Notes: generated from the letters alone by a model not told the origin. 64,000 nt of DNA from an uncultured delta proteobacterium (GCA_963729715.1 CAVSPA010000004.1:96001-160000); one strand, 5' to 3'. Counted from the stretch's first letter, positions 13,145-30,804 are shown. Made by a program: numbers and translations.

Positions 13145-13244
13145 GTCATATCGACCGAAGGGAGATGTCTTTTAGTTTTACCTTCATATTAAGATTTCTC
13201 GCTGCCCCTTCGCGATGCTCAGGGCTTCGGCTCACCGAAATGAC
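13145..13244. repeat. Short palindromic (REP/RPE-like) element
   Basis: Ends are GTCATATCGACCGAAGGGAGA and CGAAATGAC; same family as 15789-15812 and 20607-20632. Confidence 0.75.
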
Positions 13245-13261
13245 AATGATAGTATTGTGGG

Positions 13262-14098
13262 TTAGATGATATCGGCGAATCGCCGTTCCATTCGTGTGAA
13301 ATAAACAATCCCCATGATAAACAACGCAATGCTCACCGCTACTGAAATAACGAGGTCGCTCCAGAGGATGGGCGTGTTGAGAAGTGAAGATCGAAAGGCT
13401 GTGATCAGCCCGGCCATGGGGTTAAGGTTAATCAGCCATCGCCAACGCTCAGGAACGATGCTTGAAGGATAAATTACCGGTGTTGCGAAGAGCCAGAACT
13501 GGACAAGAAATGGAATGACGTATCGGAAATCCCGGTAGGCAACATTCAGTGCGGAAAGAATCATTCCAATTCCAAGGGTTGCTATAATGACTCCGAGCAT
13601 CAAAAGTGGAAGTAAGAAAAGACTCCACCCTGGATATATTCCGTAATAAAACATCATCACAATAAGAATAATAAAGGCGACAAAAAAATCGAGTAATCCG
13701 GATCCGAGGGATGCTGCCGGTATAATTATTCTCGGGAAATATACTTTTGATATTAAGTTGCTGCTTGCCAACACACTATTTCCCGCATTGCTGATCCCGT
13801 TACTGAAGAACTGCCAGGGTAGAAGAGCCGTGTAAACAAATATGGGGTAGGGAATATTATCCGATGGAATCTTTGCCAGCATGCCGAAGAAGATAGTAAA
13901 TACCACCATGCTCATGAACGGCTGCAGAATTGCCCATAACCCACCTAACACAGTCTGTTTGTAACGGACCTTTATATCGCGGATTGTTAAAAAATGTAAC
14001 AACTCGCGGTATCGCCACAGTTCCTTCCATTGCAGGGAAGACCAGAATTTTCTGGGTTCTATAATTGTGATGTCGGATTGATTATTTCCCATAGTCAT
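13262..14098 (-). CDS. wzm: Polysaccharide ABC exporter permease
   Basis: RDIKVRYKQTVLG, LISKVYFPR, LNPMAGLITAFR; about six TM segments; adjacent to wzt. Confidence 0.93.
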   Translation of the reverse strand: MTMGNNQSDITIIEPRKFWSSLQWKELWRYRELLHFLTIRDIKVRYKQTVLGGLWAILQPFMSMVVFTIFFGMLAKIPSDNIPYPIFVYTALLPWQFFSNGISNAGNSVLASSNLISKVYFPRIIIPAASLGSGLLDFFVAFIILIVMMFYYGIYPGWSLFLLPLLMLGVIIATLGIGMILSALNVAYRDFRYVIPFLVQFWLFATPVIYPSSIVPERWRWLINLNPMAGLITAFRSSLLNTPILWSDLVISVAVSIALFIMGIVYFTRMERRFADII

Positions 14099-14119
14099 TT
14101 CCCCGAATTAAAATCTCTT

Positions 14120-16303: not shown

Positions 16304-19303
16304 TTAATTCTTCATTGTTCCATCAACAGGGAATAGCCGGGGCGCGTATACATAACCAAGCGTTCTCTTCAAATCGCGCTTTTTCTCTTTAACGTTGAAT
16401 ACCGCGTACCAGTCATCATCAAGGAAGTCCGCCTTGACCCTCTGTCCCGGTTGAAGCTGACTTCTTATCCGGGAGTCGATTGAACGGTCTGCCCTGACGT
16501 TGGTCTTGTCTTTCGCATACAGGATAACGCCCCAGTCCTTGTTATCGGCCGTCTTGGGAAGCGCCGCCTGCATGGGTATCGACTCCTTGGGAGGCGCTAA
16601 TTGTAAGGGTGTTGCCGGTGGCTGGCTGCTCTCAGCTACAGGTTTCTTTTCTTCTATGGATATTGGCTTTTCTTGAGGTTTTGTTTGCGTCGCACTTGCC
16701 GGCTGCTGCGTGTTCTCTTGAGAAGTTTTCTTTTCCTCACTGACAGGTTTTGGGGATTCACCCCAGGGCAAAATATTTTTTACATCGTATTGAATAACGC
16801 GGGTCTGAAACAGGATGCCGAGAATCAGGAATAAAAGAGCAAATAAGAAAATTACGATTTTCAATCCTGAAATTTTCGCTTCAGTTCTTTCTGGCGCTGG
16901 CTTCTGTGCCTCATCATGCTGCGTCGGTTTCGTTTCAACTTCGACCGCGGGCGCAGGTACAGCCATGGGTTCAGGTACGGGCGCAGCTACCGGTGCGGGT
17001 GCAGCTACAGAGGCAGGAGCGGGGGCAGCGGTAGGAGCAGGCTCTTCCTGCTTGACAGCCACTTTGGATACAATTGATTTGAGATAATCCGTTATCGTTT
17101 GAGGCAGCGCAGCGATCTTTTCTGCGAGCGATGGCTTTCGCAGTGTCTTATCACCGTAGTAGTAATAATACTTCTTGTCACGGTAAGCAAAATCAGGGCT
17201 GATATCCGCTTTTAAACCGTTGAGGACAACACCAAAAATTTTCGCACCCACATGGTCAAGCTGTGCCTTGGCCCGCTTGAGGGCGCCTCTGGCAATTTTT
17301 CCCACCTGATATACAATGATTGCGCCGTCTGCGACGGAACTCCATATCGATGCCTCGGTAGCGGCCAATACGGGAGGTGCATCTATCAGTATAATGTCAT
17401 ATTCCGAAGAGGCCTGCTTGATAAGTTCAGGCACGAGCTTTGAGTTGACGAGCTCGGCGGGATTGGGGGCCGCCGAGCCGCCGGTGATTATGTGGAGATT
17501 GTCCATACCGGGGGTCAGCATAATCTCATCCATGCTCATCTTGCCCGTTATAAAATCTGTGATTGTCCTGACAACACTCCTCCATTCATAGTTGCCTAAA
17601 ATTACATCGGCCAGTCCGGGCACAGGTTCGATGCCAAACAGCTTAGCTATGACGGCCCTCCTGAGGTCTCCTTCAATGAGGAGCACCTTGCTGCCGCCCT
17701 GAGCCATGGTTATGGCAAGATTGACGGCTACGGTAGTCTTGCCTTCCTCGGGTGAAGAACTCGTGAAAACTACCGACTTTATGCTCTTATCGAGATTCAG
17801 AAAATTAAGGTTTGTCCTGAGGGCCCTGTAATTTTCCGCCGAGGTTGATGAAGGCAGGAAGTGCGATATGAGCCTATTCGTTTTCTTTATAGTATCGTCA
17901 TCTGGTGTTTTAGAGTATTTGTCCTGAAGAGTCGCCTTGAGTTCATCATGGTTGACCTGCGGTATAATCCCCAGGACTCTTACGCCCAGAAAGTCTTCCA
18001 CTTCTTCGATGGCCTCGAATGATGTATCGAAGGTTTCCATGATGAACGCGAAGACAATGCCCATAATCAGTCCGATAATCAATCCGATAATTGTATGGGA
18101 AGTAACCTTGGGCGGATTGACAGGTGTTGTGGGTTCAAGGGCCGGCCTTACGACCTTTACCTCTTCTATCTTTTCCGCCTCTTGAATCAATGCCTCCTGA
18201 TACTTCTTTTGCAGCAGGGAATACACTTCCCTGTTAACGCCCGCCTCCCTCTCCAGTCTGACCAGTTCCAGACCTTTTTCCGGAAGCTTCCGGAGCTGCT
18301 CGTCCGTAGCGCCGATCTGCTGCTTTAAACTCCTGATGTTTGATTCCAGATACCTTTTCTGCGAGGACAATTGCGACCGCATGCTCGTGATTATTTCATG
18401 GGACTGATTCTTGATTTCGTGAATCTGAGGGAAGGCTTCTGTATATGTAAGAAGAAGGGTGTCCCTCTCGAGCATGAGCTGAACTAATTTGTCATTGAGG
18501 TTCTTATAGATCGGCGTTGCTTCCTCAAAATAGAAAGAGCTTTTTGATGTGAGAGGTTTCTCTTCGGCTGTCGCAAGGGCTTGTTCCACCGCACTGACCT
18601 TCTGAAGTGTTGACGTGTCAAGATCGTATTGGGCCTGGAGTTTGGATGATTGGGCGAGTGAGGCCGTGGACTGCGCGTCAATGGATATCAGTTTGCTGTT
18701 CTCTCTGTAATCCCGCACCTGATCTTCTGATTTGGCGACTTTCTCCCTCACGATGTTGAGCTGATTTTCTATAAATGTCTTGGCCTCGAATGTCCTCTTG
18801 TTGATATCGACCAGATGCTCTTCTTTATAGACCTGAGCGATCGTGTTGGCGAAACGTTGCGCAAACTTGGGGTCTTCAGATGTCACGTTTATGGTGATAA
18901 TATCGGTATTGCCTTCTTGTTCCGTTGTGACGTTAGCCTTAAGATCCAATATAACCCTGAGATATTCGCTATTGCTGCGTATCTGTTCGGAAGTAAGATT
19001 GGCCGGTATCAAATTGAGCTTTTTGGCAACTGACTCCAAGATAATGTAGCTCCTTATCACGGAAGCCTGCGTCTCCAGGTAATTGGTGGAAGACCACGGA
19101 AAAGTTTGTGAGTAGAGGCCGGTGAGTGAGCCGGTCTTTTCAATCTTGATGCTGGCGCTTGTTTTATATATGGGGAGAGGCTGTCCCAATAGGGCCCAGA
19201 CAAGACTGAAAAATGCCATCGACGCCGCTGTAAAGAGGACAATGAACTTCCGCTTTCTGACGGTGCGCCAGTAATCTCTCAGATTAAGATCATATTGGGC
19301 CAT
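16304..19303 (-). CDS. wzc: Polysaccharide co-polymerase/BY-kinase with extra C-terminal TM and SH3b-like domain
   Basis: Wzz-type N-terminus DLNLRDYW, coiled coil, AENYRALRTNL, SSSPEEGKTT, LLIEGDLRR, ILIDAPP, tyrosine cluster KKYYYYYG. Start taken as ATG 19303. Confidence 0.9.
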   Translation of the reverse strand: MAQYDLNLRDYWRTVRKRKFIVLFTAASMAFFSLVWALLGQPLPIYKTSASIKIEKTGSLTGLYSQTFPWSSTNYLETQASVIRSYIILESVAKKLNLIPANLTSEQIRSNSEYLRVILDLKANVTTEQEGNTDIITINVTSEDPKFAQRFANTIAQVYKEEHLVDINKRTFEAKTFIENQLNIVREKVAKSEDQVRDYRENSKLISIDAQSTASLAQSSKLQAQYDLDTSTLQKVSAVEQALATAEEKPLTSKSSFYFEEATPIYKNLNDKLVQLMLERDTLLLTYTEAFPQIHEIKNQSHEIITSMRSQLSSQKRYLESNIRSLKQQIGATDEQLRKLPEKGLELVRLEREAGVNREVYSLLQKKYQEALIQEAEKIEEVKVVRPALEPTTPVNPPKVTSHTIIGLIIGLIMGIVFAFIMETFDTSFEAIEEVEDFLGVRVLGIIPQVNHDELKATLQDKYSKTPDDDTIKKTNRLISHFLPSSTSAENYRALRTNLNFLNLDKSIKSVVFTSSSPEEGKTTVAVNLAITMAQGGSKVLLIEGDLRRAVIAKLFGIEPVPGLADVILGNYEWRSVVRTITDFITGKMSMDEIMLTPGMDNLHIITGGSAAPNPAELVNSKLVPELIKQASSEYDIILIDAPPVLAATEASIWSSVADGAIIVYQVGKIARGALKRAKAQLDHVGAKIFGVVLNGLKADISPDFAYRDKKYYYYYGDKTLRKPSLAEKIAALPQTITDYLKSIVSKVAVKQEEPAPTAAPAPASVAAPAPVAAPVPEPMAVPAPAVEVETKPTQHDEAQKPAPERTEAKISGLKIVIFLFALLFLILGILFQTRVIQYDVKNILPWGESPKPVSEEKKTSQENTQQPASATQTKPQEKPISIEEKKPVAESSQPPATPLQLAPPKESIPMQAALPKTADNKDWGVILYAKDKTNVRADRSIDSRIRSQLQPGQRVKADFLDDDWYAVFNVKEKKRDLKRTLGYVYAPRLFPVDGTMKN

Positions 19304-19317
19304 TGCGCGTGATTCTC

Positions 19318-20508
19318 CTAAAACTGCAGAGCGGAAGGGTTTCTTAACCACTGATCCCTGAGGGGGGCAGGATATTGATACAAGTACTGCAAAAGAGGTG
19401 TCGTGTTGATGATGAATTCATTGATATCGCCTATAACCCTTCTCGGCACGTAAACAAGATCACCGTCTTTAAGCTTTATATTCTGGGACAGGTCCCCTTG
19501 CTTCAGAATTTGATCCAGGTTGGCGGATAGGATAATCGGCTTCCCTCCGCGCTCCTTGTATTCCCTTATTATCTTTATATCTGAATTTATTGCTATCAGG
19601 GTGTAACTCCCGGCATCAGCCATAGCTGCCAGGAGGTCAGGCGCATCCTTCAGCCTGTATATACCCGGCCTGTTGACCTCGCCGAAGACATACACCCTTT
19701 CACCGTAAAAGGGCAGTTCCGGAACGGTGACTATGTCGCCATCGTCTATGATTACATTTTGGGAAACGTCCCCTTTGAACATGGCATTATAAAGATTGAC
19801 CACGTACCTCTTACCCTTTCGGAGTATTTCCACATTTCTGAGATCAGCATTTCCCGGGCTAACGCCGGTGATACCAATGTCCTTGCCTGTTATCGGGCCG
19901 CCGGCAGACACGATGAGATCAAGAATCGTGGTCTTTCCAGTAAGAGGGTACTTTCCGGGACCGGATGTCCCCGTCGAAAGGACGTTGATCTGGCCGAAGA
20001 GCAGGGCTGTCTTACTTTTGTAATCTTTTACGATAACTTCAATTCGAGGATTCCTGATGTATTGTTTTAGTTGATTCGTCAGTATTTCTCTGACCTCGTT
20101 GACGGTGTGACCTGCAACGGGGATGTCATCACCGAACAAATAGGAGATCTTGCCCTCCTGTCTGACCACGACCGTGTAAGTATTCTGTTTGAAGCCTTCT
20201 TCGGTGCGGGCCGTTGTAATTGTGTATGGGATCCAGTAGTTGATCGTGAGGATATCACCCGGCCCTATAAGATATTCAGGCACGCCATGCCTTAGTGTAA
20301 AGACGCTGTTTTCCGTGACCTGGCTCATCTTCACGATTTCTTCCATTTCCTTCTGTTCAGCTAGGCGCTGCGCAGGCGTCACAACCCCGGATGTTTCAGA
20401 AAAAGTCTTGACAGGTATGCCGCGGGCCTCAAATGTGCAGGCAGATAAAAGCAGAGTTGCGAAGCACGAAATATATGCGAGGAGTTTGATTTTACCTATG
20501 TATAACAT
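19318..20508 (-). CDS. wza: Polysaccharide export lipoprotein (Poly_export + SLBB domains)
   Basis: Lipobox LLSAC, EYLIGPGDILTI, YIRNPRIEV, VYVFGEVNRPG, LKDGDLVYVP. Confidence 0.88.
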   Translation of the reverse strand: MLYIGKIKLLAYISCFATLLLSACTFEARGIPVKTFSETSGVVTPAQRLAEQKEMEEIVKMSQVTENSVFTLRHGVPEYLIGPGDILTINYWIPYTITTARTEEGFKQNTYTVVVRQEGKISYLFGDDIPVAGHTVNEVREILTNQLKQYIRNPRIEVIVKDYKSKTALLFGQINVLSTGTSGPGKYPLTGKTTILDLIVSAGGPITGKDIGITGVSPGNADLRNVEILRKGKRYVVNLYNAMFKGDVSQNVIIDDGDIVTVPELPFYGERVYVFGEVNRPGIYRLKDAPDLLAAMADAGSYTLIAINSDIKIIREYKERGGKPIILSANLDQILKQGDLSQNIKLKDGDLVYVPRRVIGDINEFIINTTPLLQYLYQYPAPLRDQWLRNPSALQF

Positions 20509-20539
20509 TTTGCTTTACTCCTGATTGGACATTAGCTCT

Positions 20540-20632
20540 GGATTCCTGCTGGAGCCTGACCTCGAATTTATTAATCGGGGGCGGGAATGGCAGACCTTCC
20601 TTTCTTGTCATTTCGACCGAAGGGAGAAATCT
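20540..20632. repeat. Two adjacent palindromic REP-like units
   Basis: 52-nt unit at 20540-20591 resembles 15605-15656. GTCATTTCGACCGAAGGGAGAAATCT at 20607-20632; its first 24 nt are the exact reverse complement of 15789-15812. Confidence 0.85.
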
Positions 20633-20687
20633 TAGGGATTCCTCATCATAATCTAATTTTTTAAATTCATAAAAATAATGGCTTAAG

Positions 20688-22130
20688 TCAAGGCCTTTTT
20701 AATTTTTTTTCAGGTGACGGTAAAAAGCTGAAAATATGGGAAACGATCTCCCGTACACGGGCTGTATAGTATGATTTCAGGGTTACACCGTCCCTGACAC
20801 AAAGTCTTTGAAGAAGTATTTGGCGAGGCGGGAACAAAGTCCTGAATAAGAATTTGATCTTATCGGAGAGTGTTCTATTCATGGCCAGGTAAATAAAATA
20901 GCTGCTGCCCCGGATGCGGCGGTTGGTAGTCTGGAGTCTCAGGAAGAATCTTTCACCGAGAGATAAATCCGGCGGCGTCAGTTTCCTCGGGCTTTCTTCA
21001 GGTATAAACGCTCTTGCATAGGCCTTAACGATGGAGAGGCTGAGATAGACCAATCGGTCCAGATTAAAACGGCGGCTTTCTTCGACAAGTAAATCCCAAT
21101 CAATATTTTTTTCATAGGCTTTAAGGGCGTAGGATATATCCGTTATGAGTATGAGGCGATCGAAGGAGTGGCCTATCCTGAGGGCGTGTTCGCAGAGATA
21201 GATGATAAGGTGTTCGGGGCATAACATATATACGTCGGCATCTGCCACCCTCGCGGGAACCGCCTTTTCCCATATGCGCCCGATATCGACATGTTTGGCA
21301 AACATCGTTGCTGGCACTGAACTGTTTACTATGTGCCAGTGAACATGAAGATTTAAGGGGGAGCCATTTTCTTTTCGGTATTCGAGGCTGGCAAGATAGC
21401 CTTCCGGATTGTTTATGGCCCTCGCAACGGAACTGTCTCTTGCGATATATCCCTGAGAGGACAAGAGCTCATCGACATCATAGAGGTCAGTTTTCTTGAC
21501 CAGAATATCGATGTCTGACATTCCCCTCATCGCGATGGCGGGATAGATGTGTTCCGCAAGGGCTATGCCTTTAAGAACAATGCAGAGGATCCCGGATTCC
21601 TTAAGAAGGGTGAGGATACTTTTCAACTCACCGATGATGGAAAGGTTTCTTCTTAGATTGTTGTAATACTGTTCGGATAGCGCAGCTCTGACTGCCGGGG
21701 GCACGAGATGTTCCGCTTTGTTATTTTTTAAATTGTGAAATATTGTTTCGACAACGCCCTCCTGCCTCATCTTCACAACAATATAGTCCCAGTCGTACTC
21801 CGTGCTATCCTTTGCATACAAAGAGAGAGATTGATTTTTGGAATCCAACTTCTGTAACCTTTGCACAACTCCTCTATTTGTCATTCCGGGCTTGACTCGG
21901 AAATTGGAGCATACTTCTTGATAATACTGGATTCCCGCTGGAGCCGGTCCTCGAATGTCCTTATCGGGGACGGGAATGACAAAATTGCTGGTCTTAAGCA
22001 GTTCTGAAAAGGTCTCCTTCTGTGAGTCCTTATTAGGTAAGTCAAAAAGGAGACTTAGGATTAATTTGTCGCAATCTTGGCAGTTGATGGCAAAGCTCCG
22101 CTCTCTAAAGTCACGGCTTCTCGTAAACAT
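20688..22130 (-). CDS. Nucleotidyltransferase family protein (NTP_transf_5-like) with in-frame palindromic insertion
   Basis: IVLKGIALA..IYP...RGMSDIDILV, NLHVHW, EHLIIYLCEH, RLILITDI. Confidence 0.85.
   Translation of the reverse strand: MFTRSRDFRERSFAINCQDCDKLILSLLFDLPNKDSQKETFSELLKTSNFVIPVPDKDIRGPAPAGIQYYQEVCSNFRVKPGMTNRGVVQRLQKLDSKNQSLSLYAKDSTEYDWDYIVVKMRQEGVVETIFHNLKNNKAEHLVPPAVRAALSEQYYNNLRRNLSIIGELKSILTLLKESGILCIVLKGIALAEHIYPAIAMRGMSDIDILVKKTDLYDVDELLSSQGYIARDSSVARAINNPEGYLASLEYRKENGSPLNLHVHWHIVNSSVPATMFAKHVDIGRIWEKAVPARVADADVYMLCPEHLIIYLCEHALRIGHSFDRLILITDISYALKAYEKNIDWDLLVEESRRFNLDRLVYLSLSIVKAYARAFIPEESPRKLTPPDLSLGERFFLRLQTTNRRIRGSSYFIYLAMNRTLSDKIKFLFRTLFPPRQILLQRLCVRDGVTLKSYYTARVREIVSHIFSFLPSPEKKLKRP
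21855..22016. mobile_element. 162-bp RPE-like palindromic element inserted in frame in a CDS
   Basis: Outer imperfect inverted repeats (12/16), inner TTTGTCATTCC/GGAATGACAAA, and the same 52-nt unit (21929-21980) found in two intergenic regions. Confidence 0.78.
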
Positions 22131-22263
22131 AGATACTCCCTCTCACGCATATGAGAAGGAGTACCTGTAAAAAGTAGTGTCTATCAAAATAGGTTTCAAT
22201 TTAAAATACAATATATTATAATAGATTAGATGCAAGAAGTAAATAGGTTCTGAGGATGGTGGG

Positions 22264-22572
22264 ATGGAAGAGTTTTTGAAGGATATCGAACTTTTGTCAA
22301 GGAATACGGATTGTATTTTCAGGGAAGAGGAAGACGGGGCCTTTCTGTTCGATCCGGAAAGCGGGAATCTTAAATTTATCAATAGCATGGGCGTTAATAT
22401 CTATCAGCTCTGCGACGGTAAAATGACTGTGGGAGACATCACATCATTGGTAAGCGAAAATTATAAAGACATTTCGAGCAAGAAGATCGAGGACGATATA
22501 AAGGTTTTTTTGCAAGAGCTTGTAAAAATGGAGTTTTTAAAAAGAGAAGAAACCGGTCATGACGGGAAATAA
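22264..22572 (+). CDS. PqqD-family RiPP recognition element (ScmD-like)
   Basis: FREEEDGAFLFDP...FINSMGVNIYQLCDG..TVGDI...DDIKVFLQELVKMEFL, the typical PqqD winged-helix pattern; overlaps the downstream rSAM gene. Confidence 0.88.
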   Translation: MEEFLKDIELLSRNTDCIFREEEDGAFLFDPESGNLKFINSMGVNIYQLCDGKMTVGDITSLVSENYKDISSKKIEDDIKVFLQELVKMEFLKREETGHDGK

Positions 22573-23641
22573 TGCAGCGTATTCGTTAAACTCCATTTAT
22601 CTTTATCTTACGGACAGATGTAATCTGAGGTGCAGGCACTGCTGGATTGAACCTCTATATTATGAAGGCCGCAAAGACGACAGCACTGAATTTGACCTGA
22701 AATTTCTCAAAAAGGCGATTGAAGATGCGAAAGAGATTGGCCTTAACCGTGTTAAGCTGACAGGCGGCGAGCCTTTTTTGAGAAGAGACATACTTGATAT
22801 CATCGCGTATCTTCATGCTCAAAACATTACAGTGGATATAGAGACAAACGGCACCCTCATAGACAAGGAGATTTGCGCAGTTCTAAAAGCTAATGGCGTT
22901 AATCAGGTATCCGTCAGCCTTGACAGCATGACGGCAGAGCAGCATGAAACATTCCGCGGGGTCAAAGGTTGTTACCATGATGCCTTGAAAGGGCTTTCAC
23001 TGCTCACAGAAAGTGGCATAAACACTCAGCTCATAATGACCCTCTATAAGGAAAATATATCGGAGATTGAAAGGCTGGTTGATCTTTCTTCCCGGATGGG
23101 TGTCGGTTCTGTTAAGATAAACCCTGTCATGCCCACGGGGCGAGGCAAGAAATTTTTTGAAAAAGAAGAAAATGTTGAGTTCGGCGATCTAATAAAGATT
23201 GACAGATGGATTGAAGAAGAATTAGTGTCAAAATACAAAATTGATATACACTTTGATATCCCCATAGGTCTTAAGTCGCTTAAATGCATAAGAACGAGAC
23301 AATTGTTCGAGTGCAATATTGTAAATATAATCGGCATACTCTCCGACGGCACAATTTCCCTGTGCGGCATCGGCCAGACGGAGACTGCTCTTAATATGGG
23401 CAACATTGCGGTAGACGATATACGTGAAGTGTGGGCAAGTAATCCCATCCTGCAGAAATTGAGAAAGGACATACCGCGCAATTTAGAGGGCATATGCGGC
23501 CGCTGCATATTCAAGTTCAGATGCCGGGGGGCGTGCAGGGCCTGTGCATACGGCTTAACAGGAAGTCTTAATAGTCCCTTCTTTGTCTGCCGTGAGGCAT
23601 ATGAAAAGGGACTGTTTCTGGAATCCAGGATGATCAATTAA
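22559..23641 (+). CDS. scmF: Radical SAM/SPASM peptide maturase (SynChlorMet ScmF-like)
   Basis: IYLYLTDRCNLRCRHCWIEP, TGGEP, ETNGT; SPASM cysteines EC...DGTISLC...CGRCIFKFRCRGACRAC...C. The subfamily name is recalled from memory, not from an HMM search. Confidence 0.85.
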   Translation: MTGNNAAYSLNSIYLYLTDRCNLRCRHCWIEPLYYEGRKDDSTEFDLKFLKKAIEDAKEIGLNRVKLTGGEPFLRRDILDIIAYLHAQNITVDIETNGTLIDKEICAVLKANGVNQVSVSLDSMTAEQHETFRGVKGCYHDALKGLSLLTESGINTQLIMTLYKENISEIERLVDLSSRMGVGSVKINPVMPTGRGKKFFEKEENVEFGDLIKIDRWIEEELVSKYKIDIHFDIPIGLKSLKCIRTRQLFECNIVNIIGILSDGTISLCGIGQTETALNMGNIAVDDIREVWASNPILQKLRKDIPRNLEGICGRCIFKFRCRGACRACAYGLTGSLNSPFFVCREAYEKGLFLESRMIN

Positions 23642-23660
23642 GGATTGAGTGAGGTAACAA

Positions 23661-24698
23661 ATGACTCGCAGCTATGACTTGATTAAAGATAATAATAAGG
23701 GAGAGGGAGACGGGCCTCTTCGCCTGAGTGACATTGAAAACCTTAAGTCCCAGGAAGGCAAATCATACGAGACTCCGGAAGAGCGTTCAGCGCAGGATGA
23801 AAAAGAGGTTGATAATGCCGAGAGACTCTATGCGGGCTTCCAGAAATACATGCGCGATGTCAGGGAGGAGGTTAAGACCAATCAACCCATTGAGCTTGAG
23901 GCGGCATTCTCGCTGATTGAGCAGCTCACGAAATCAAGAAGTATGATGGAAAGAGTTTATCAGTTAACCAATACCTTTTACCATGGTAAGGACTACTATA
24001 TCTCTCATCCCGTAAATACAATGATATATGCCGTAAAGGTCGGGCTGCGGATGGGATATTCCCGTGACAAACTCAAAGAACTCGCTATGGCAGCACTTCT
24101 TCACGATGTAGGAATGTTTATGATTCCTGAAAATATCATAACCAAGGAAGGGGCATTGACCGAATCTGAATTGGCTCTGATAAAGAGACATCCTGAGCTC
24201 GGGAAAAATCTCCTGTTCAAGTTTAAGGATCAGTTACCCTGGCTTGCCCGCGCCGTTCATGAACATCAGGAAAGAGAAAATGGCAAGGGATATCCGAGGG
24301 GAATTAAAGGAGATGACATTGCGGAGTACGCGAAGATTATAGGCATATGTGATTCGTATGAGGCGATGACGCACAACCGTCCCCACAAGAAGGCTATCAT
24401 GCAATTTACCTCAGTGAGGGAATTGATAGAAACAAAGGACCTTCTGTTTCCCACAAAGATACTTAGAGCATTTCTTGAGGAGTTATCCCTGTATCCGATA
24501 GGAAGTTGCGTAAAATTGAATAACAATGCAATTGGAAGGGTCATTGACACCAATAAAGACCAGCCCATGAAACCGATAATCAAACTCCTTTTTGACGGCC
24601 ACGGGAATGCAGTGACTGACGAAAGGATCATAGACTTGAAAGAGAATACTGTATTGAATATTCTCGGCGGCGTGTCAGATGACGAATTGCCAGGCTAA
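23661..24698 (+). CDS. HD-GYP domain phosphohydrolase (c-di-GMP phosphodiesterase-like)
   Basis: LLHDVGM, IKRHP, HEHQERENGKGYPRG, ICDSYEAMTHNRPH; C-terminal YPIGSCVKLN. Confidence 0.88.
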   Translation: MTRSYDLIKDNNKGEGDGPLRLSDIENLKSQEGKSYETPEERSAQDEKEVDNAERLYAGFQKYMRDVREEVKTNQPIELEAAFSLIEQLTKSRSMMERVYQLTNTFYHGKDYYISHPVNTMIYAVKVGLRMGYSRDKLKELAMAALLHDVGMFMIPENIITKEGALTESELALIKRHPELGKNLLFKFKDQLPWLARAVHEHQERENGKGYPRGIKGDDIAEYAKIIGICDSYEAMTHNRPHKKAIMQFTSVRELIETKDLLFPTKILRAFLEELSLYPIGSCVKLNNNAIGRVIDTNKDQPMKPIIKLLFDGHGNAVTDERIIDLKENTVLNILGGVSDDELPG

Positions 24699-25598
24699 AT
24701 GGAAGAACTGATTCTCTCCATAGCGGACCTTGCCATTGCCGTTCGTGCGGAGAAACACATAAAAGTTTTATTAGAACCTTTAACTAAACTCTTCAGCGGA
24801 TTTCTAAATGATGCCGGTAAACCAGCCGCGTTCCTGAATTTAACTTACGATCGTCTCCGTACATATCCGAACTTTAAAGACATGACTGTCAATGTGCTTG
24901 CGGGAAACTGCGGGGAAAGCAACGAATTGATTAATCAGGTGGGGAAAGTTTACCCGATATCAAGAGATTCTATAGTCGTCGGGTATTTAAATGGATGCCT
25001 CGCGTATAATCCGTCATCCAGTGAGGCCTGTCTGCTTCTCTTCAGGTCGCATGATCAGAACAATTTCACGGCAACTCTTCATAAGATGCTGTTCATCTTT
25101 ATTTCTTTCGTCCTGGGTGAAAGAAACAGATTCATGGTGCACGGTGCAGGAATAGGGGAGAAACAGGGTGGGGGAGGCTTTCTCTTCCTCGGCGATTCAG
25201 GTGCGGGAAAAACAACCGTTGCGGGTTTTGCCGGTGTGGATGCAGTGCTTTCGGATGACGCTCCCGTTATCGGCAAAGAAGACGGCGTTTACAACATATA
25301 TTCATCACCCTTCAGCCAAGTAAATTTGTTTGACGAAAGATCAAGCGATTACTTCCGGAAGAAGGTTCAATTAAGGAAGCTTTTGTTCTTAAATAAGGCA
25401 GATGAGATTGCGGTAACGGCGCGGCAACGACATTCCGCCCTGACGGAAATATTAACATCGCACGTGCATTCGTTTGATCTGATGGACCGGGACTTGAGAA
25501 TAGGTGCTTTTAACTTTTGCCATGACCTATGTTACAGCATACCTGCGTATGACCTCTATTTTCAGGAGAATAATAAATTCTGGGATGCTTTGAACTAA
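24699..25598 (+). CDS. HPr kinase-like P-loop protein (ScmC-like)
   Basis: MVHGAGI, FLFLGDSGAGKTT Walker A and VLSDD, the HprK-type motif order; SSPF. Confidence 0.8.
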   Translation: MEELILSIADLAIAVRAEKHIKVLLEPLTKLFSGFLNDAGKPAAFLNLTYDRLRTYPNFKDMTVNVLAGNCGESNELINQVGKVYPISRDSIVVGYLNGCLAYNPSSSEACLLLFRSHDQNNFTATLHKMLFIFISFVLGERNRFMVHGAGIGEKQGGGGFLFLGDSGAGKTTVAGFAGVDAVLSDDAPVIGKEDGVYNIYSSPFSQVNLFDERSSDYFRKKVQLRKLLFLNKADEIAVTARQRHSALTEILTSHVHSFDLMDRDLRIGAFNFCHDLCYSIPAYDLYFQENNKFWDALN

Positions 25599-25625
25599 AA
25601 AGCTGTGATTCTGCCATGCCGTCGC

Positions 25626-25994
25626 TTAGCCGGCGCCTCCCGCCTGACATCCTCCCGCAGCGGCGCTGCCAGCCGTACACGTGCCTCCGGCGACACTGCC
25701 AGAGTTGCAACCACTGTTTCCGGCGGCGCTGCCGGATTGACATTGACCACCGGCAGCAGTACTGCCGGCATTACATTTGCTTGACGTAGGAGCGCTGCCT
25801 GTATTGCAATTGCTTGATGCGACACTGCCGGCTTGACATTGCCCGCCGGAGGCAGTGGCTCCCGAGTTGCACTGCTGTTGAGGAGATCCTCCTGCCTGGC
25901 ATTGGCTTGGCCCTTGAGCGTGAGCGACCCCGCCGCCAAGATCAAGAATTTGAGGAGGTTCATAAGGGAGCTTGAATTTGGATTTCACGTGCAT
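25626..25994 (-). CDS. Cys/Gly/Ser-rich RiPP precursor peptide with lasso-type leader and nine CxxG repeats
   Basis: Leader YEPPQILDLG; Cys at 32, 42, 53, 63, 74, 85, 96, 106 and 116, each in C-[QNT]-[AST]-G. AGGAGG RBS; its spacing favours a GTG start at 25988. Directly downstream of an rSAM/SPASM gene. Confidence 0.88.
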   Translation of the reverse strand: MHVKSKFKLPYEPPQILDLGGGVAHAQGPSQCQAGGSPQQQCNSGATASGGQCQAGSVASSNCNTGSAPTSSKCNAGSTAAGGQCQSGSAAGNSGCNSGSVAGGTCTAGSAAAGGCQAGGAG

Positions 25995-27114
25995 ATCCCT
26001 CCTGTTTCTTTTGTGACTTCATTACATCTAAGCTGTATGGGTATCCATTGCCTTTGTAGATCCTGTAGCAGGACATGGGATCAACCGTAAAAACAGAGCC
26101 AGAGAGCTCATAAGACACAGCAGGACATCCGCCGATACAGAGTGATTTGTATCCGCAGCCGCTGCATTCCTCAATATCGTCCAGGGAAACGGATGCCCTT
26201 CTTCTCATTTTGGAAAAAATGGGCGACGAAGCCCATATTTCCTGAAAATCCGTTTCCCCGATGTGGCCGGCCTTGAAATCCCACAACCTGTCACATGGAA
26301 CAACCCAGCCGTCGGGCCTGACGGTACACTTCTGGATTCCCCCTCCGCAGCCAAACAGCCCGTTCGTACATCCCGGATTGTCCCGGTCCCCTATCTTCTG
26401 AAGCTTCTCGAAGCCTTTAAAAAAGTTTCCCATGTCGAGGATCGTCCCGATTACAAAATTACCGTACGTATTTCTCAAGCGCTCTAATTTGTGCGTTAAC
26501 GCCCTTCTCTGAGAATTGGAAAGAGTGAGGTTGGGAAGATGACATACCGCGTTGCCGAGCGGCAGTAGTTCATTAAATTTCACGGCCGTCAAACCGAGGC
26601 TCTTCCCGAGAATAATAATATCTTCTATGTCCTGATAATTGTTCTTCGTGACCGTGGTGTAAGTGGAGACGTGTCTGTTATGCTTTAAAAGATTTTCGAT
26701 GCCGCGAATCGTTCGATCAAAACTGCCATTTCCCCTTTGCTTGTCATGCACGGCGGGTGATGACCCGTCGAGACTGACGACGACGCTGAACAGTTTCTTT
26801 AGCTCGGAAATCCGCCGCGATGCTTGTTCGTCGATAAGGGTGGCGTTTGTATTCAGGCCGTAATGGAAGTGGTGTTTTTCTATTTCATACAAAATGGAAA
26901 AGACATCTTCCCTCATGAAGGGCTCGCCGCCGCTGATCCAGAGTGTAAAAACCTTCAACTCGGCAAGTCTCCTGATAAACTTTATCCATTCGTCTGTCGT
27001 CAGGTCGCTCGTTGCATTGCGCGTCGGATAGACGTTGCAATGCTTGCATGCCAGATTACACTTATTGGTAATGGCGATGAAAACATCTAATGGAGCCGAA
27101 AAACAGTTCTTCAT
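25960..27114 (-). CDS. scmE: Radical SAM/SPASM peptide maturase (SynChlorMet ScmE-like)
   Basis: APLDVFIAITNKCNLACKHC, SGGEP, NTNAT, VSLDG; SPASM GCGGG..C..RPDGWVVPC...CSGCGYKSLCIGGCP...C. The subfamily name is recalled from memory. Confidence 0.85.
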   Translation of the reverse strand: MKNCFSAPLDVFIAITNKCNLACKHCNVYPTRNATSDLTTDEWIKFIRRLAELKVFTLWISGGEPFMREDVFSILYEIEKHHFHYGLNTNATLIDEQASRRISELKKLFSVVVSLDGSSPAVHDKQRGNGSFDRTIRGIENLLKHNRHVSTYTTVTKNNYQDIEDIIILGKSLGLTAVKFNELLPLGNAVCHLPNLTLSNSQRRALTHKLERLRNTYGNFVIGTILDMGNFFKGFEKLQKIGDRDNPGCTNGLFGCGGGIQKCTVRPDGWVVPCDRLWDFKAGHIGETDFQEIWASSPIFSKMRRRASVSLDDIEECSGCGYKSLCIGGCPAVSYELSGSVFTVDPMSCYRIYKGNGYPYSLDVMKSQKKQEGYAREIQIQAPL

Positions 27115-27518
27115 GACGAAATGATCAGCCCCTTTCGCTTAAAGGCCATGAGGGTGAGTACGATGTCCCTTTTCGCGGCATCCTGCCCCACATCAAAACG
27201 ACCGGTAATTTCCTCTACCATATTATCGACACCGTTGGCACCGTTGCACAGGTTCCAGATATCAGCAGCAACAGCGTTTAACTTCAGCGTATCTGAGTTT
27301 TTCCTCGTATCCGTAAGGATCGTGTAGCTATCTTCTTTTCTCAGCGAGACGTCAGGATGTCTGGCAGGACTGGCGCTCAGGATTTCCTTCACTTCCATTG
27401 AATTCCAGGTGTATCGCAGATAGTCGACCATGCCAAATGACCGCACGGAGCCAGTAGCCGGCAGGAGAATACCTGCGCCAAATAATACGGACATAAAATT
27501 TCTTCTCGATGTATCCAC
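27111..27518 (-). CDS. PqqD-family RRE protein with N-terminal twin-arginine signal-like peptide
   Basis: AAGGAGG 8 nt before GTG; SRRNFM followed by a hydrophobic stretch; C-terminal LNAVAADIWNLCNG...VEEITGRFDV...RDIVLTLMAFKRKGLI PqqD pattern. Confidence 0.82.
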   Translation of the reverse strand: MDTSRRNFMSVLFGAGILLPATGSVRSFGMVDYLRYTWNSMEVKEILSASPARHPDVSLRKEDSYTILTDTRKNSDTLKLNAVAADIWNLCNGANGVDNMVEEITGRFDVGQDAAKRDIVLTLMAFKRKGLIISS

Positions 27519-27564
27519 GACAGATTCCTCCTTTAAAGATGCGCCCGGACGGCGGCTATTCCGA

Positions 27565-28359
27565 TTATAATGAATCCTTTACCACCTTTTTTACCAAGTC
27601 CGCACTAATGGTCTTTTGTTTTGTGCTGGAGGCAATCAAAAGTGCCAGATCACAGACATTGTTTATCTTCCTCGGCACGCCTTGGGAATACAGGTATATT
27701 TCTTCTATAGAGTCGGGAGGAAATATCCCGTTGGTCAGTCCCGCTCTCTCCATTCTGTAAACTATGTATTTTGCCGTCTCGTCGGCATTGAGTGGATTCA
27801 GATGGAATCTTATGGCGATCCTCTGATCGAGTTGTTTAAATTGCCTTATCAGGTCCTTCAGCTCCGGTTGTCCGATGAGAACGAATGTCATCAGGAACTT
27901 ATCGTTCAACTGAAAGTTCAGGAGCAAGCGAATCTCTTCGAAGGTATCGGTGTGTATGAGCTGTGCCTCATCGATGATGAGCAGAGTGGTCCTGTTTTTC
28001 CTGACATTTTCGAGCAGCCGCGTATTTAATATGGCGAGAAGCTCCGTCTTTGAATTAGTCCTGACATTCAGGCCAATCTGATAGAGCACCTCCTTCAGGA
28101 AGTCCAGCGGCTCGAGCGACGGGTTTGTTATCAATCCGATCTCAAAATCCTTTTCGGGAAGCTGCTGGATGAAAACCCTGCTGAGGAGAGTCTTTCCGCT
28201 TCCTATTTCGCCCGTAAGCAGGGCTGCCCCTTTTCTCCTCTTCACGGCATAGACTAGCCTGGCGAGGGCCTCGACGTGCTCATGTGAGTAGTACATGAAC
28301 TCCGGATCAGGTACATTTTCAAACGGGAATTTCTTGAAGCCCCAGTATTCTAAATACAT
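27565..28359 (-). CDS. ExeA/GspA-like AAA ATPase (EPS/PEP-CTERM-associated type)
   Basis: MYLEYWGFKKFPF..PDP, GEIGSGKT, IIDEAQ, LIGQPEL, QLDQRI, GVPRKINNVCD. Confidence 0.88.
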   Translation of the reverse strand: MYLEYWGFKKFPFENVPDPEFMYYSHEHVEALARLVYAVKRRKGAALLTGEIGSGKTLLSRVFIQQLPEKDFEIGLITNPSLEPLDFLKEVLYQIGLNVRTNSKTELLAILNTRLLENVRKNRTTLLIIDEAQLIHTDTFEEIRLLLNFQLNDKFLMTFVLIGQPELKDLIRQFKQLDQRIAIRFHLNPLNADETAKYIVYRMERAGLTNGIFPPDSIEEIYLYSQGVPRKINNVCDLALLIASSTKQKTISADLVKKVVKDSL

Positions 28360-28802
28360 TTCATCAACCCATCAATTGCCATATAGATCTCTGAAAAACA
28401 GAGCCTGTACTGAAATATTGAAAGTTTGTAGGGATCCTTAATGTCCCCGTATTCTTCATTATAATCCGGAGAAAATGATTTGAGACGATGAATCTTAGCC
28501 TCCGCTTCCGGGTACTTCTCGACGATTATTTTCTTGTGGATACCCTCCATGACGATGATCATATCTGCCTGGGAGACCATGTCTTCCGTCAATAGCTTTG
28601 AATGGTGACCGGCGCCATCGAGACCGTGCTCATCCAGTATTTCAACGGCTTTCGGATCGGCAGGCATGCCATTCATGTCGGTGACGGCGGCAGAGTAAAC
28701 CTCGATACCGGGTTTTTTGTCCTTTTTCAGCCTTTCTATGAGAATCCTTTCCGCCATGAAGCTTCTGACTATATTGGCAGTGCAGACAAATAAAATTTTC
28801 AT
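28350..28802 (-). CDS. wzb: Low-molecular-weight protein-tyrosine phosphatase (Wzb-like)
   Basis: FVCTANIVRS (Cx5R P-loop) and DIKDPY. Confidence 0.85.
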   Translation of the reverse strand: MKILFVCTANIVRSFMAERILIERLKKDKKPGIEVYSAAVTDMNGMPADPKAVEILDEHGLDGAGHHSKLLTEDMVSQADMIIVMEGIHKKIIVEKYPEAEAKIHRLKSFSPDYNEEYGDIKDPYKLSIFQYRLCFSEIYMAIDGLMKCI

Positions 28803-28927
28803 GAGAACGTGAGCGTCATTTATGAGATATCGTACTGCCCGGCAAATAGTGCAATATGTATTTCTAAGTCAGCTAAATATGGACGAAATGCTATCATAAT
28901 AGATCATACAAATCAACGGCAGATGAA

Positions 28928-29173
28928 CTATCCAAAATAAATCAGCTTCCCCACTACAGAAGGCCTGTCCAGGGGAACTGTTATAGGCTGAATTCTCTTC
29001 AATTCTTCGATATCCCATTTATCATCCCCGCGCAATATATCCAGGGCTTCCTCTTGGGAATTGGCGAGGACGAGAACCTCCGCCTGCATGTAATTGTCCC
29101 TGTAGATATGCGGCTCATCGAACATCGACCAGCTCGAGAATTTCTTGCTGTGCCGCCAGATGAAGATCTTCAT
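28928..29173 (-). CDS. Hypothetical protein (81 aa)
   Basis: GAGG RBS, protein-like composition, fits between neighbours on the same strand. Confidence 0.6.
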   Translation of the reverse strand: MKIFIWRHSKKFSSWSMFDEPHIYRDNYMQAEVLVLANSQEEALDILRGDDKWDIEELKRIQPITVPLDRPSVVGKLIYFG

Positions 29174-29194
29174 GGGTATTTACCTCTGAATGGT

Positions 29195-29545
29195 TTAATT
29201 TGGCACTTTGAACTGCGAACACAGTTCGGAAGATCCCGGCTTAAAATTTCTGCACGCCCTGGGCCTGTCTTCGTAGATCGTGCAGGTCGAGTATTTGCCC
29301 TCATATCTGAGGAAGGGACAGTTGAACAGTATCCGGCCGTCTTCTGACGATACGACAATGTCTCCTGCCCATGCGGCTTTTGAATGTTCCATGACACGGA
29401 GTATTTTCTTCTTTTCTTCACGCCTCCATCTTTCCATGTCTTCATGAGTTGCAGGAGCGTAAGCAGCCATACAGCACTTCCCGCAGCGCTTGCAGGTCAC
29501 AGACGATGTCTCGTTGTCTTGCGGCTTTTCCATTTTTACATGCAT
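29195..29545 (-). CDS. YkgJ-family CxxCxxCC cysteine-cluster protein
   Basis: CKRCGKCC...CPFL...CTIYEDRPRACRNF. Confidence 0.85.
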   Translation of the reverse strand: MHVKMEKPQDNETSSVTCKRCGKCCMAAYAPATHEDMERWRREEKKKILRVMEHSKAAWAGDIVVSSEDGRILFNCPFLRYEGKYSTCTIYEDRPRACRNFKPGSSELCSQFKVPN

Positions 29546-29739
29546 TCAAATGGCTAGTGAAGCATCTGCAAAATTGATACGCAAATGGCAAAACCAAACC
29601 GAAGGATCGTGGATGAAAGATAATGGCACTGCTGTGCCCACCGGGGCACAAGTAAAACGGAGAATGATGTGTTAGAAGCTACGGCCGAGTTTCTTCGCCT
29701 CTGTAATCCTGACAATGTTACAACTTCGCGAAGAGTGTT

Positions 29740-30804
29740 CTATTTCATTAACCCTCTCTCCTGGGCGATAGACCTGAGGGTCTCAATCACATTATCCGGA
29801 GGCGTGTAACAATCCTTCTCATCCTTGCGGATAAGCTCGATGGCATCGGCGCTGCACGTCGGAATGCAGAGGCCGCAGCCAATGCAGCGGTCCGAGTCGA
29901 CTCTCGCAATGTCGTCCTTCATGCTGATTGCCGCCATCTGGCACCTGTCGAGGCAGATTTCACAGCCGATACAGTCCTCTTCATTGACCTTCGCGTAGTA
30001 ATTGGTATGGACGAGGGTCGCCGGTTTGGGCAGTCTCTTAAGGCTCTTCAGTATCTGACAGCAATCGCCGCAGCAAAGGCACATGGCCATTATCTTCTGC
30101 GCGTTTGTAGGTTGGAGAACGAGGGCGTCTTCTTCCGCCCTTTTCAGGATTTGCAGGGCCTCTTCGCGGCTGATCGGGCGTCCCAAGCCGTTCTTTTCAT
30201 AGAAATGAGCGGCGCCGGAAAAGATGAGGCAGGCCTCCGCCAACTTGCCGCATCCTTTCCCGATCATGGAATGCTCCCTTCTACATATGCAGGGCGCAAC
30301 AACAATCTTGCTCTGCTGTTCAATCAACCGCCGGGCCTCCTCGTAAGGCATCACGCTTCCCTGCCCGTCGAGGCTGGCGCCGATTGGTATGGTTCTCAGT
30401 TGCTTGGTTTTGAGCTTCAGGAATGGATCGATTAGATGAGGGATATATTCATTCATATCCTTTATAAGCTCTTCATCCAGGTCATTAACGTGGTACTCCC
30501 AGATGCCGACGACATACTGGGCTGCCATGTAGCGTGGCCCGTCGGGCGTGTCGGCGCGGAAGATCAATCCATTTAGTGACATCTGATAAAGCTTATCCGC
30601 AAGTTCTTCCGCAGGCAGTCCCGCGCGCTTCGCAATTCGCTCGACGGGCTCCGGCATCACACGCAGATGGCAGGCGAGAGTGGCTTCATCTTCGGTAAAC
30701 AGCCGTTTGAGGATGCGCATCTCCACGCCCGATTCCGTGCGGGGGAAACCGCCGGGGAGGCCGTCCAGGTGAACAGCCAAGGTTTCATAGATATCCTGCG
30801 TCAT
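29740..30804 (-). CDS. 4Fe-4S ferredoxin-domain protein
   Basis: CICR, C..C, CLCCGDCC and two CxxCxxCxxxC motifs (CIGCEICLDRC, CIGCGLCIPTC). Confidence 0.85.
   Translation of the reverse strand: MTQDIYETLAVHLDGLPGGFPRTESGVEMRILKRLFTEDEATLACHLRVMPEPVERIAKRAGLPAEELADKLYQMSLNGLIFRADTPDGPRYMAAQYVVGIWEYHVNDLDEELIKDMNEYIPHLIDPFLKLKTKQLRTIPIGASLDGQGSVMPYEEARRLIEQQSKIVVAPCICRREHSMIGKGCGKLAEACLIFSGAAHFYEKNGLGRPISREEALQILKRAEEDALVLQPTNAQKIMAMCLCCGDCCQILKSLKRLPKPATLVHTNYYAKVNEEDCIGCEICLDRCQMAAISMKDDIARVDSDRCIGCGLCIPTCSADAIELIRKDEKDCYTPPDNVIETLRSIAQERGLMK

Follow-up and report, generated by a model that had tools for sequence, protein, structure and literature searches.

Why would the genes for a peptide that is made on ribosomes and modified after translation (RiPP) be embedded in a locus for capsule or exopolysaccharide (EPS)? 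The question is raised by a 64,000-nucleotide stretch of DNA from an uncultured delta proteobacterium (GCA_963729715.1, CAVSPA010000004.1:96001-160000), hereafter the window, which lies on contig C4 of a 3.76 Mb host genome (19 contigs, 100% complete by marker genes). At 20688-28802, between Wza and Wzb, a first-pass annotation made from the sequence alone had placed a nucleotidyltransferase, two PqqD/RiPP recognition element (RRE) proteins, two radical S-adenosylmethionine (rSAM)/SPASM enzymes, an HPr-kinase-like protein, an HD-GYP protein, an ExeA-like ATPase and a Cys-rich precursor, and precisely this gene set was recovered there by Pfam, NCBIfam and open reading frame (ORF) analysis (Table 1). 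Its interpretation was sound as regards the RiPP architecture, the kinship with the SynChlorMet (Scm) cassette, the lack of a dedicated exporter and the interweaving with polysaccharide genes; a strict reading of it, as to linkage or Scm membership, has evidence against it. The view favored here, on which our judgment is evenly divided, is that the cassette is a Syntrophales-specific derivative of Scm that has been built into, and works with, a polysaccharide locus of the Wza/Wzc/Wzy_C type.

The cassette and the flanking polysaccharide genes are packed into three units. On the minus strand, the genes for Wzb, ExeA, PqqD-2, rSAM-2 and the precursor follow one another with overlaps of 10 nt (Wzb/ExeA), 4 nt (PqqD-2 stop/rSAM-2 start) and ~30 nt, the precursor gene overlapping the 3' end of the rSAM-2 gene, and with a single gap of 46 nt (ExeA-PqqD-2). 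On the plus strand, PqqD-1 and rSAM-1 share a 14-nt overlap and are followed by HD-GYP and the kinase after gaps of 19 and 0 nt. The third unit, again on the minus strand, consists of the PF14907 gene, Wza and Wzc, with a 179-nt gap and then a 34-nt overlap. This arrangement shows a physical interweaving with polysaccharide genes. The remark that no immunity gene is apparent also held, as the cassette has neither an exporter nor an immunity gene of its own, whereas a fused ABC exporter is part of canonical Scm cassettes. A promoter and terminator scan of 19000-30000 was uninformative (it gave 10 promoter-like sites, fewer than the mean of 16.1 for shuffled sequences); its best promoter-like site, with 10/12 matches, lies at 22243-22215 (minus strand) ahead of the PF14907 gene. 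An 81-aa ORF at 22143-22388 (minus strand) has no family match, overlaps PqqD-1 and was treated as spurious.

The presumed substrate is encoded by a Cys-rich frame at 25626-25994 on the minus strand, which can be taken as the genuine coding frame because an AGGAGG precedes its start, the frame is conserved in relatives (45-74% amino-acid identity), and the Gly at +3 from each Cys is invariant. An alternative frame at 25595-25963 (minus strand; 122 aa, no Cys, no family match) was dropped in its favor. The AGGAGG lies 3 nt ahead of an ATG and 9 nt ahead of an in-frame GTG at 25988; the latter is the counterpart of the start used by relatives and is the likely start. The leader reads (M)KSKFKLPYEPPQILDLGGGVAHAQ, and the core consists of 9 repeats of 10-11 residues each with the pattern C-x-[STA]-G-[SG]-x-[AP]-x3-4. 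Across 15 aligned precursor homologues, seven leader positions are invariant (Y11, E12, P14, D18, L19, A24, and A26), with the consensus K-L-P-Y-E-P-P-x-I-x-D-L ... A-[HY]-A-[QAD]. Their cores contain 4-10 Cys at intervals of 10 or 11 residues, and Gly occupies +3 in 108/108 repeat units; position +4 is Ser in 58/108 and Gly in 28/108, and position +6 is Ala in 65/108 and Pro in 32/108. The gene is single-copy in the host genome. A search of 5.8 billion proteins returned only 13 matches, all unnamed or "hypothetical" and all from Syntrophus/Syntrophales, and gene callers seem to miss this gene.

Both rSAM enzymes contain the CX3CX2C motif and the complete seven-Cys SPASM pattern (CX9-15GX4C ... 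CX2CX5CX3C ... C), which in rSAM-1 takes the form CX3CX2C, CX11GX4C, CX2CX5CX3C plus a seventh Cys. Their Pfam Radical_SAM and SPASM matches are above cut-off. Orthologues of rSAM-1 that are 56-92% identical occur in loci L029-L036, L038, and L042. The best NCBIfam match of rSAM-2 is ScmE (TIGR04250, 240.9 bits), with WgkB at 191.8 bits, and the PapB, StsB, AlbA, mycofactocin and PQQ maturase models are among the lower matches of the rSAM enzymes. In RiPP pathways, the leader is bound by the RRE domain. Two PqqD matches above cut-off, together with a leader that is conserved while the repeat number varies from 4 to 10, are what an RRE-dependent pathway displays; thus, the RiPP maturation architecture recognized in the first-pass annotation (RREs, rSAM/SPASM enzymes, and a real, conserved precursor) is present. 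A complex prediction for PqqD-2 (residues 30-135) and the precursor (residues 1-55) scored 0.45, against 0.00 for the best of three controls. Its runs agree in at least 82% of contacts, with a partner predicted local distance difference test (pLDDT) of at least 50; this mark was reached by 116/157 solved complexes and 2/215 mismatched pairs, and at scores of 0.60 or less it was reached by only 18/157 solved complexes and by both of the mismatched pairs that passed. The prediction lends weak support to the idea that PqqD-2 may bind the precursor leader.

Several rSAM/SPASM-modified peptides carry multiple thioethers at repeated Cys motifs, namely sactipeptides and ranthipeptides such as freyrasin/PapB. 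The window cassette resembles these in having SPASM maturases with RRE-guided recognition and one Cys per short repeat. On the other hand, its repeat (C-x-x-G-[SG]-x-[AP]) lacks a conserved Asp, Asn or Thr acceptor, and it employs two different maturases.

The closest named system is Scm (TIGR04248-TIGR04252), as the first-pass annotation had proposed. The Scm models are the best NCBIfam match for their proteins in the window, which supports the kinship, but all five fall below their curated cut-offs: ScmF (TIGR04251) 347 bits against 400, ScmE 240.9 against 400, ScmD 49.8 against 100 for PqqD-1, ScmC 23.7 against 125, and ScmA (TIGR04252) 13.4 against 35 (E 0.068). No match to TIGR04251 above cut-off was found anywhere in the host genome. 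A quick IQ-TREE phylogeny of rSAM-1 was built from the window and 78 of 79 contig loci retrieved with this enzyme (one split-gene locus was left out), with support given by the Shimodaira-Hasegawa-like approximate likelihood ratio test (SH-aLRT). The window falls in a 16-row clade (support 97), apart from 63 canonical rows from many phyla. By these comparisons, the window cassette is best described as a sister of the Scm cassette and not a member. Both have two PqqE-like rSAM/SPASM enzymes, PqqD, a P-loop protein of the ScmC type and a precursor with Cys repeats. Canonical ScmA-type peptides (L049, L067, L073, L098, and L102) likewise show C-x-x-G-type repeats and a K-Y-E-x-P leader, and an iterated profile built from the window PF14907 protein (rather than the Pfam model) matches 41 of the 79 Scm-type loci. 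Scm-type cassettes were found in Thermodesulfobacteriota, Chlorobiota, Chloroflexota, Planctomycetota, Acidobacteriota, Nitrospirota, and methanogen records. In the canonical order (L067, L043, L070, and L046), PqqD-ScmE-ScmF-ScmA-ScmC-x-PF14907 precedes a fused ABC exporter of ~610 residues. In contrast, the window cassette consists of two divergent units with one PqqD apiece; its type of precursor has grown to 4-10 repeats; where canonical cassettes have the fused exporter, it has a Tat-like PqqD; and the whole is nested in a polysaccharide locus. A full-text literature search found no paper on SynChlorMet, and none joining radical SAM, RiPP, exopolysaccharide and PqqD; searches with the names ScmA/ScmE/ScmF and TIGR04250-04252 returned, among the matches listed, only unrelated uses of the acronyms, and PMC10288494 mentions neither TIGR04250, TIGR04251 nor polysaccharide.

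Is the nesting a sign of shared function? The product could instead be a secreted peptide of an ordinary kind (an antimicrobial or a signal) whose genes merely lie in the same variable surface island, subject to horizontal exchange, as the polysaccharide genes; the slot beside wza would then be an integration hot spot with no functional coupling. We regard this account as unlikely, though by no means negligible. Two surveys bear on the matter. In the first, Wza/Wzc were counted within 10 kb of each of the 79 rSAM-1 loci and were present in 8/15 loci of the window clade (5/7 of full-length loci). In the second, a profile of the precursor was run over 301 Syntrophales genomes, and up to 10 kb on each side of a match was scored with the window proteins. 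The precursor family occurs in 39/301 genomes, representing 17/72 genera and 9/24 families. Among the 38 genomes besides the host, 16 have Wza/Wzc within 10 kb, and a further 8 have only ExeA and/or Wzb (3 of them cut by contig ends). Wza/Wzc adjacency extends over 6 of the 9 precursor-bearing families. In these nested loci the internal gene order varies, as does even the type of rSAM pair (families f14 and f24 have a collinear, canonical-like pair), while the position of the cassette between Wza-Wzc-Wzy_C and ExeA/Wzb is constant. A functional link between cassette and polysaccharide locus is likely, because the nesting recurs and tolerates such rearrangement. The rival account is further disfavored by the single co-directional unit of overlapping frames that joins Wzb and ExeA to the precursor gene, and by the distribution of Wza: an orthologue (at least 54% identity) is found in 69/301 Syntrophales genomes, in 32/39 of those with the precursor against 37/262 of the others (lists compared by hand, related genomes not being independent), so that cassette and orthologue co-occur even when unlinked. 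In genome G034, the PF14907 orthologue (355 bits, L155, contig C8) lies immediately upstream of Wza-Wzc-Wzy_C, and the other cassette genes, which have a Wzb-like gene in their midst, are on another contig (L027/L047); retention of this one gene beside wza likewise speaks against the rival account. Within the genus, members G001, G004, G005, and G008 have neither an orthologue of the window Wza nor one of the window ExeA, which also favors the link. A seemingly cassette-free genome, G002, from a sister species, proved not to be one. Its locus is broken at contig ends (L108 at the end of C78, L109 at the start of C5), one break falling within the repeats of the precursor and another within the PF14907 gene, which made the cassette seem absent in a genome protein search.

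The slot itself was examined in 12 picked loci that have a Wza orthologue and no window-type precursor nearby. In 7 of these (L144, L145, L148, L149, L150, L152, and L153; confirmed by Pfam in 5 of the 7) a different rSAM cassette is present, with PqqD, 2-3 rSAM enzymes, an S24/S26-like peptidase, PF14907 and, in some, an ABC exporter. The slot of L155 holds PF14907 and ABC exporters, and four slots (L146, L147, L151, and L154) are empty. Judged by gene content, the slot is one that draws radical-SAM peptide modules of several kinds. That its cargo, where there is any, is made up of rSAM, PqqD, S24-peptidase, PF14907 or ABC-exporter genes speaks against the rival account. The empty slots also bear on which genes belong to which system. 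Wzb-ExeA-HD-GYP-Wza is kept in L146, L151, and L154, and L147 keeps only Wzb directly beside Wza-Wzc-Wzy_C. ExeA and HD-GYP can be assigned to the polysaccharide locus because they are retained in the first three, and the idea that they are parts of the cassette is ruled out by the same observation. Wzb probably belongs to the polysaccharide locus as well; unlike ExeA and HD-GYP, it tracks the cassette in four loci without Wza/Wzc (L047, L056, L125, and L127), where it lies between the two cassette halves.

A number of observations weigh against functional coupling and are those on which the secreted-peptide account draws. In the canonical Scm clade, whose cassettes have their own ABC exporter, Wza/Wzc lie within 10 kb in only 4/64 loci (3/25 of full-length loci), the only ones with polysaccharide genes beside them being L043, L070, L085, and L098; the window queries did not show polysaccharide genes to be generally enriched near canonical Scm loci. 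In the second survey, 14/38 genomes have no polysaccharide gene alongside the precursor. These 14 include 5 lone precursor-like ORFs, and several of the matches are on short contigs; in G030 and G111 the cassette clearly stands alone. Adjacency is not required, because the complete cassettes L033 (G030), L036 (G111) and L047 (G085) are set among housekeeping genes (FtsQ/FtsA, UvrA, CobW or AFOR). The synteny expected by the first-pass annotation therefore holds as nesting kept in six Syntrophales families, and fails as a strict rule. The EPS-linked rSAM-1 rows are essentially one clade of 11 (97% SH-aLRT, quick search), and the linkage may stem from one or a few ancestral events followed by inheritance. 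Several unrelated types of cassette occupy the slot in different loci, or it is vacant; it could be a hot spot of recombination, and the whole module is patchy even within the genus. In the tree, L033 falls within a group of EPS-linked rows, which suggests that in G030 the cassette has left an intact polysaccharide locus.

A second alternative would make the modified peptide a regulator of polysaccharide production, that is, a cue in the periplasm or outside the cell that acts on the phosphorylation cycle of Wzc and Wzb or on the HD-GYP cyclic di-GMP phosphodiesterase. It is quite improbable. The nearest neighbors of the cassette (HD-GYP, Wzb, and Wzc) are indeed regulatory enzymes, Wzb alone stays with the cassette in the four loci named above, and an HDOD-domain protein lies beside the stand-alone cassette L033. 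Yet HD-GYP, ExeA and Wzb occur in cassette-free slots, where they evidently have no need of a peptide; no receptor gene is evident; and a core of ~95 residues in 9 repeats is unlike known small signaling peptides.

Returning to the reading in which peptide and polysaccharide work together, the export of the product has to be accounted for. The N-terminus of PqqD-2 carries a signal resembling those of the twin-arginine translocation (Tat) pathway, MDTSRRNFMSVLFGAGILLPA, ahead of the PqqD domain; the start codon is a GTG preceded, at a distance of 8 nt, by AGGAGG. All 12 homologues compared retain R5 and R6. Tat-like PqqD homologues, with S-R-R-x-F-L and a hydrophobic stretch, are found in L029-L036, L042, L047, L056, L069, and L111-L139, and TatC is encoded in the host genome. 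Among the 79 Scm-type loci, 12 have a Tat-like PqqD, 32 a fused ABC exporter and 0 both (hypergeometric P 0.001, relatedness ignored), and in the sample of genomes from the order Syntrophales the sole fused exporter found belongs to a canonical cassette, L143. This pattern reads as a swap of export routes. In Tat "hitchhiker" export, a signal-less partner is carried by the Tat-signal subunit to which it is bound, for instance in hydrogenase-2 and the subunits of DMSO reductase. PqqD-2, a putative Tat substrate, is alike in that an S-R-R-x-F-L-type N-terminus is found on a protein whose job is to bind a signal-less polypeptide. By this analogy, we infer that PqqD-2 may ferry the modified peptide, while bound to it, via Tat. 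Conservation of A-x-A where the leader ends would be compatible with processing by an extracytoplasmic S26-type peptidase; S24/S26-like peptidases are encoded in sister cassettes and none in the window cassette. To our knowledge, no RRE with a Tat signal has been reported, and a literature search turned up no related paper that joins the twin-arginine pathway with RREs. Several features speak against the Tat proposal. The twin arginine is replaced by KR in 4/25 PqqD-2-type ORFs of the order sample (RR in 21/25); the Pfam matches of PqqD-2 to TAT_signal (E 0.28, 11.7 bits against a cut-off of 22.7) and TM_PetC (E 0.068) are both far below cut-off; and no conserved signal-peptidase site follows the Tat-like motif.

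The remaining two enzymes may decorate the peptide. According to protein structure predictions, the kinase (AlphaFold2 model, pLDDT 89.8) is most similar in Foldseek to ATP-dependent phosphoenolpyruvate carboxykinase (ATP-PEPCK; E 5.6e-8, template modeling score on the query 0.45-0.51) and also matches the HPr kinase 1knx (E 1.5e-4). By sequence, its profile matches solved structures at the P-loop level only (PEPCK E 0.003, HPr kinase E 0.6). The residues H148, G165-x-S-G-x-G-K171 and S185-D-D187 are invariant in 14 homologues. The PF14907 enzyme (mean pLDDT 79.1, residues 1-110 predicted to be disordered) has no match among solved structures by sequence, and its model matches MenT1 (E 6e-4), ANT(2'')-Ia (including 4xje and 5cfs), LnuA, and FKRP; G188, D206, and D208 are invariant in 17 homologues, the latter two forming a D206-x-D208 pair. 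A comparable pair of enzymes modifies lasso peptides. Excerpts from PMC8498205 and PMC6993621 describe HPr-kinase homologues that phosphorylate the C-terminal Ser of lasso precursors. In the excerpt from PMC6993621, PsmN, from a "family of uncharacterized nucleotidyltransferases", is required for additions of +162/+324 Da (one or two hexoses) on the phosphoserine, is likened by Phyre2 to the ANT(2'') entries 5cfs and 4xje, and is inactive as a D134A/D136A variant. As far as these excerpts go, the lasso phospho-glycosylation module (PadeK/PsmK and PsmN, for paeninodin and pseudomycoidin) and the window cassette share an HPr-kinase-superfamily kinase, a nucleotidyltransferase and a PqqD-type RRE in one cluster, and the window PF14907 model matches the same ANT(2'') structures that were reported for PsmN and has an invariant Asp-x-Asp. 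On the other hand, the window cassette lacks a lasso cyclase or protease, and its kinase resembles ATP-PEPCK more closely in fold than it does HPr kinase. The substrate also fits less well: the conserved C-terminal Ser of lasso precursors is found in only 2/15 window-type precursors, and a Ser follows C-x-x-G in only 58/108 units. The parallel with PsmK/PsmN, as drawn from fold and motif, is suggestive. In the literature, none of the matches listed paired NTP_transf_5 with PqqD, HprK or SPASM.

Taken together, the following pathway can be proposed. The leader (KLPYEPPxIxDLG..A-[HY]-A-Q) would be bound by both PqqD/RRE proteins, each of which would present the 9 C-x-x-G repeats to its own rSAM/SPASM enzyme for the introduction of one cross-link per repeat, most likely Cys thioethers. 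The PEPCK/HPr-kinase-fold kinase would phosphorylate a hydroxyl residue, probably the Ser after C-x-x-G, and the PF14907 enzyme would add a sugar or other group to the phosphate, as PsmK/PsmN do on a lasso peptide. The product would then leave the cytoplasm on the Tat-signal-bearing PqqD-2, which would substitute for the canonical Scm ABC exporter, and would act outside with the exported polysaccharide as an attached or matrix component. By analogy, we infer that the product may be the glycosylated, surface-displayed scaffold suggested in the first-pass annotation. A bolder version is improbable: that the peptide, phosphorylated on its repeat Ser residues, sugar-primed by PF14907 and exported through Tat by an RRE doubling as export adaptor, would be covalently joined to the polysaccharide as the "phosphoglycopeptide" core of a capsule or matrix polymer, and that polysaccharide loci of anaerobes would routinely carry interchangeable radical-SAM peptide modules supplying such cores. 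A last alternative, that the precursor is multi-core and a small cofactor-like molecule such as PQQ or mycofactocin is excised from each repeat, can be set aside as highly improbable, since the PqqD plus PqqE-like rSAM architecture, the mycofactocin and PQQ maturases among the lower matches and the strict repeat periodicity (only C, G and a few other positions being conserved) are outweighed by a variable repeat number (4-10), by the lack of a peptidase, oxidase or flavoenzyme in the window cassette, and by a Tat-like RRE and a kinase/PF14907 pair that have no role in such pathways.

A precedent for a polysaccharide locus paired with a dedicated set of polypeptides is the XrtA/PEP-CTERM system. 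The best NCBIfam matches of ExeA, Wza, Wzy_C and the GT4 glycosyltransferases are XrtA/PEP-CTERM models, and two such models are also among the Wzc matches, all below cut-off; the models concerned are TIGR03015 (ATPase), TIGR03027 (exporter), TIGR03007/03018 (chain-length/kinase), TIGR03097 (ligase-like), and TIGR03088 (glycosyltransferase). In contrast to that system, the partner in the window would be a small modified peptide and not PEP-CTERM proteins, and the whole host genome gave no match to exosortase (PF09721) at E <= 0.001. If the coupling is true, it joins ribosomal peptide natural products with capsule/EPS assembly, two fields that are usually separate, and the export idea, if true, adds a route for modified peptides. 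The Syntrophales branch offers handles on function: a long periodic substrate with clear expected mass shifts, a conserved partnership with polysaccharide export, and a Tat-like RRE that replaces an ABC exporter. Surface polymers of Syntrophales are ecologically interesting because these organisms live in tight aggregates with partner organisms.

Table 1. Genes of the cassette and its immediate polysaccharide neighbors, in window coordinates.
Feature	Position	Strand	Evidence
Wzc-like tyrosine autokinase/chain-length protein, 1015 residues	16304-19351	-	Pfam Wzz/GNVR/AAA_31
Wza	19318-20508	-	Pfam Poly_export and SLBB domains
PF14907 (NTP_transf_5) nucleotidyltransferase-fold enzyme	20688-22130	-	Pfam E 4e-54
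PqqD/RRE 1 (PqqD-1), no signal sequence	22264-22572	+	Pfam PqqD E 1e-11
rSAM/SPASM 1 (rSAM-1), ScmF-like	22559-23641	+	Radical_SAM E 2e-30, SPASM E 5e-7
HD-GYP-type phosphodiesterase	23661-24698	+	HD_5 E 7e-28; HD and GYP motifs readable in translation
P-loop kinase, PEPCK/HPr-kinase fold (ScmC-like)	24699-25598	+	PEPCK_ATP E 8e-6, below Pfam cut-off
Precursor, 122 codons	25626-25994	-	Cys-rich frame with conserved leader and 9 repeats
rSAM/SPASM 2 (rSAM-2), ScmE-like	25960-27114	-	Radical_SAM E 3e-25, SPASM E 4e-9
PqqD/RRE 2 (PqqD-2), Tat-like N-terminus	27111-27518	-	PqqD E 3e-11
ExeA-like AAA_22 ATPase	27565-28359	-	AAA_22 E 1e-23; TIGR03015 244.7 bits, cut-off 324.5
Wzb-like low-molecular-weight phosphotyrosine phosphatase	28350-28802	-	LMWPc E 2e-30

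The polysaccharide locus occupies 2-20508 on the minus strand, as judged by Pfam/NCBIfam scans of its ORFs, and encodes GT4 and GT2 glycosyltransferases, two epimerase/dehydratases, five methyltransferases, Wzm/Wzt, a Wzy_C-family protein, the Wzc-like protein, and Wza. By Pfam, the markers of Wzy-dependent (group-1-like) export (Wza, Wzc, Wzb and a Wzy_C-family protein) are all present. A Wzx flippase is missing from the ORFs scanned, which instead include genes for a Wzm/Wzt ABC transporter. These ABC-pathway markers (Wzt with a C-terminal glycan-binding domain) adjoin the Wzy-pathway markers Wzy_C, Wzc, and Wza at 11867-15526 (minus strand). The Wzc-like protein has ~270 additional C-terminal residues past its kinase domain that weakly match SH3_3 (E 0.003), and the N-terminal ~110 residues of the HD-GYP protein have no assigned family. 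Directly upstream of Wzb, at 28928-29545 (minus strand), are an 81-codon ORF without a family match and a CxxCxxCC (PF03692) protein; this gene pair is kept at 75-93% identity in genus-member loci L021, L023, and L108 (G006, G003, and G002, respectively) and was not seen in remoter loci. A third rSAM/SPASM protein is encoded within the polysaccharide locus at 3032-4027 (minus strand), between methyltransferases; its best NCBIfam match is spiro-SPASM (78 bits, cut-off 250), and its substrate might be a sugar rather than a peptide. Lastly, a CDP-alcohol phosphatidyltransferase-like membrane protein (5113-5946, minus strand) among the glycosyltransferases hints at decoration of the polymer with a phospho-alcohol of the inositol- or glycerol-phosphate type.

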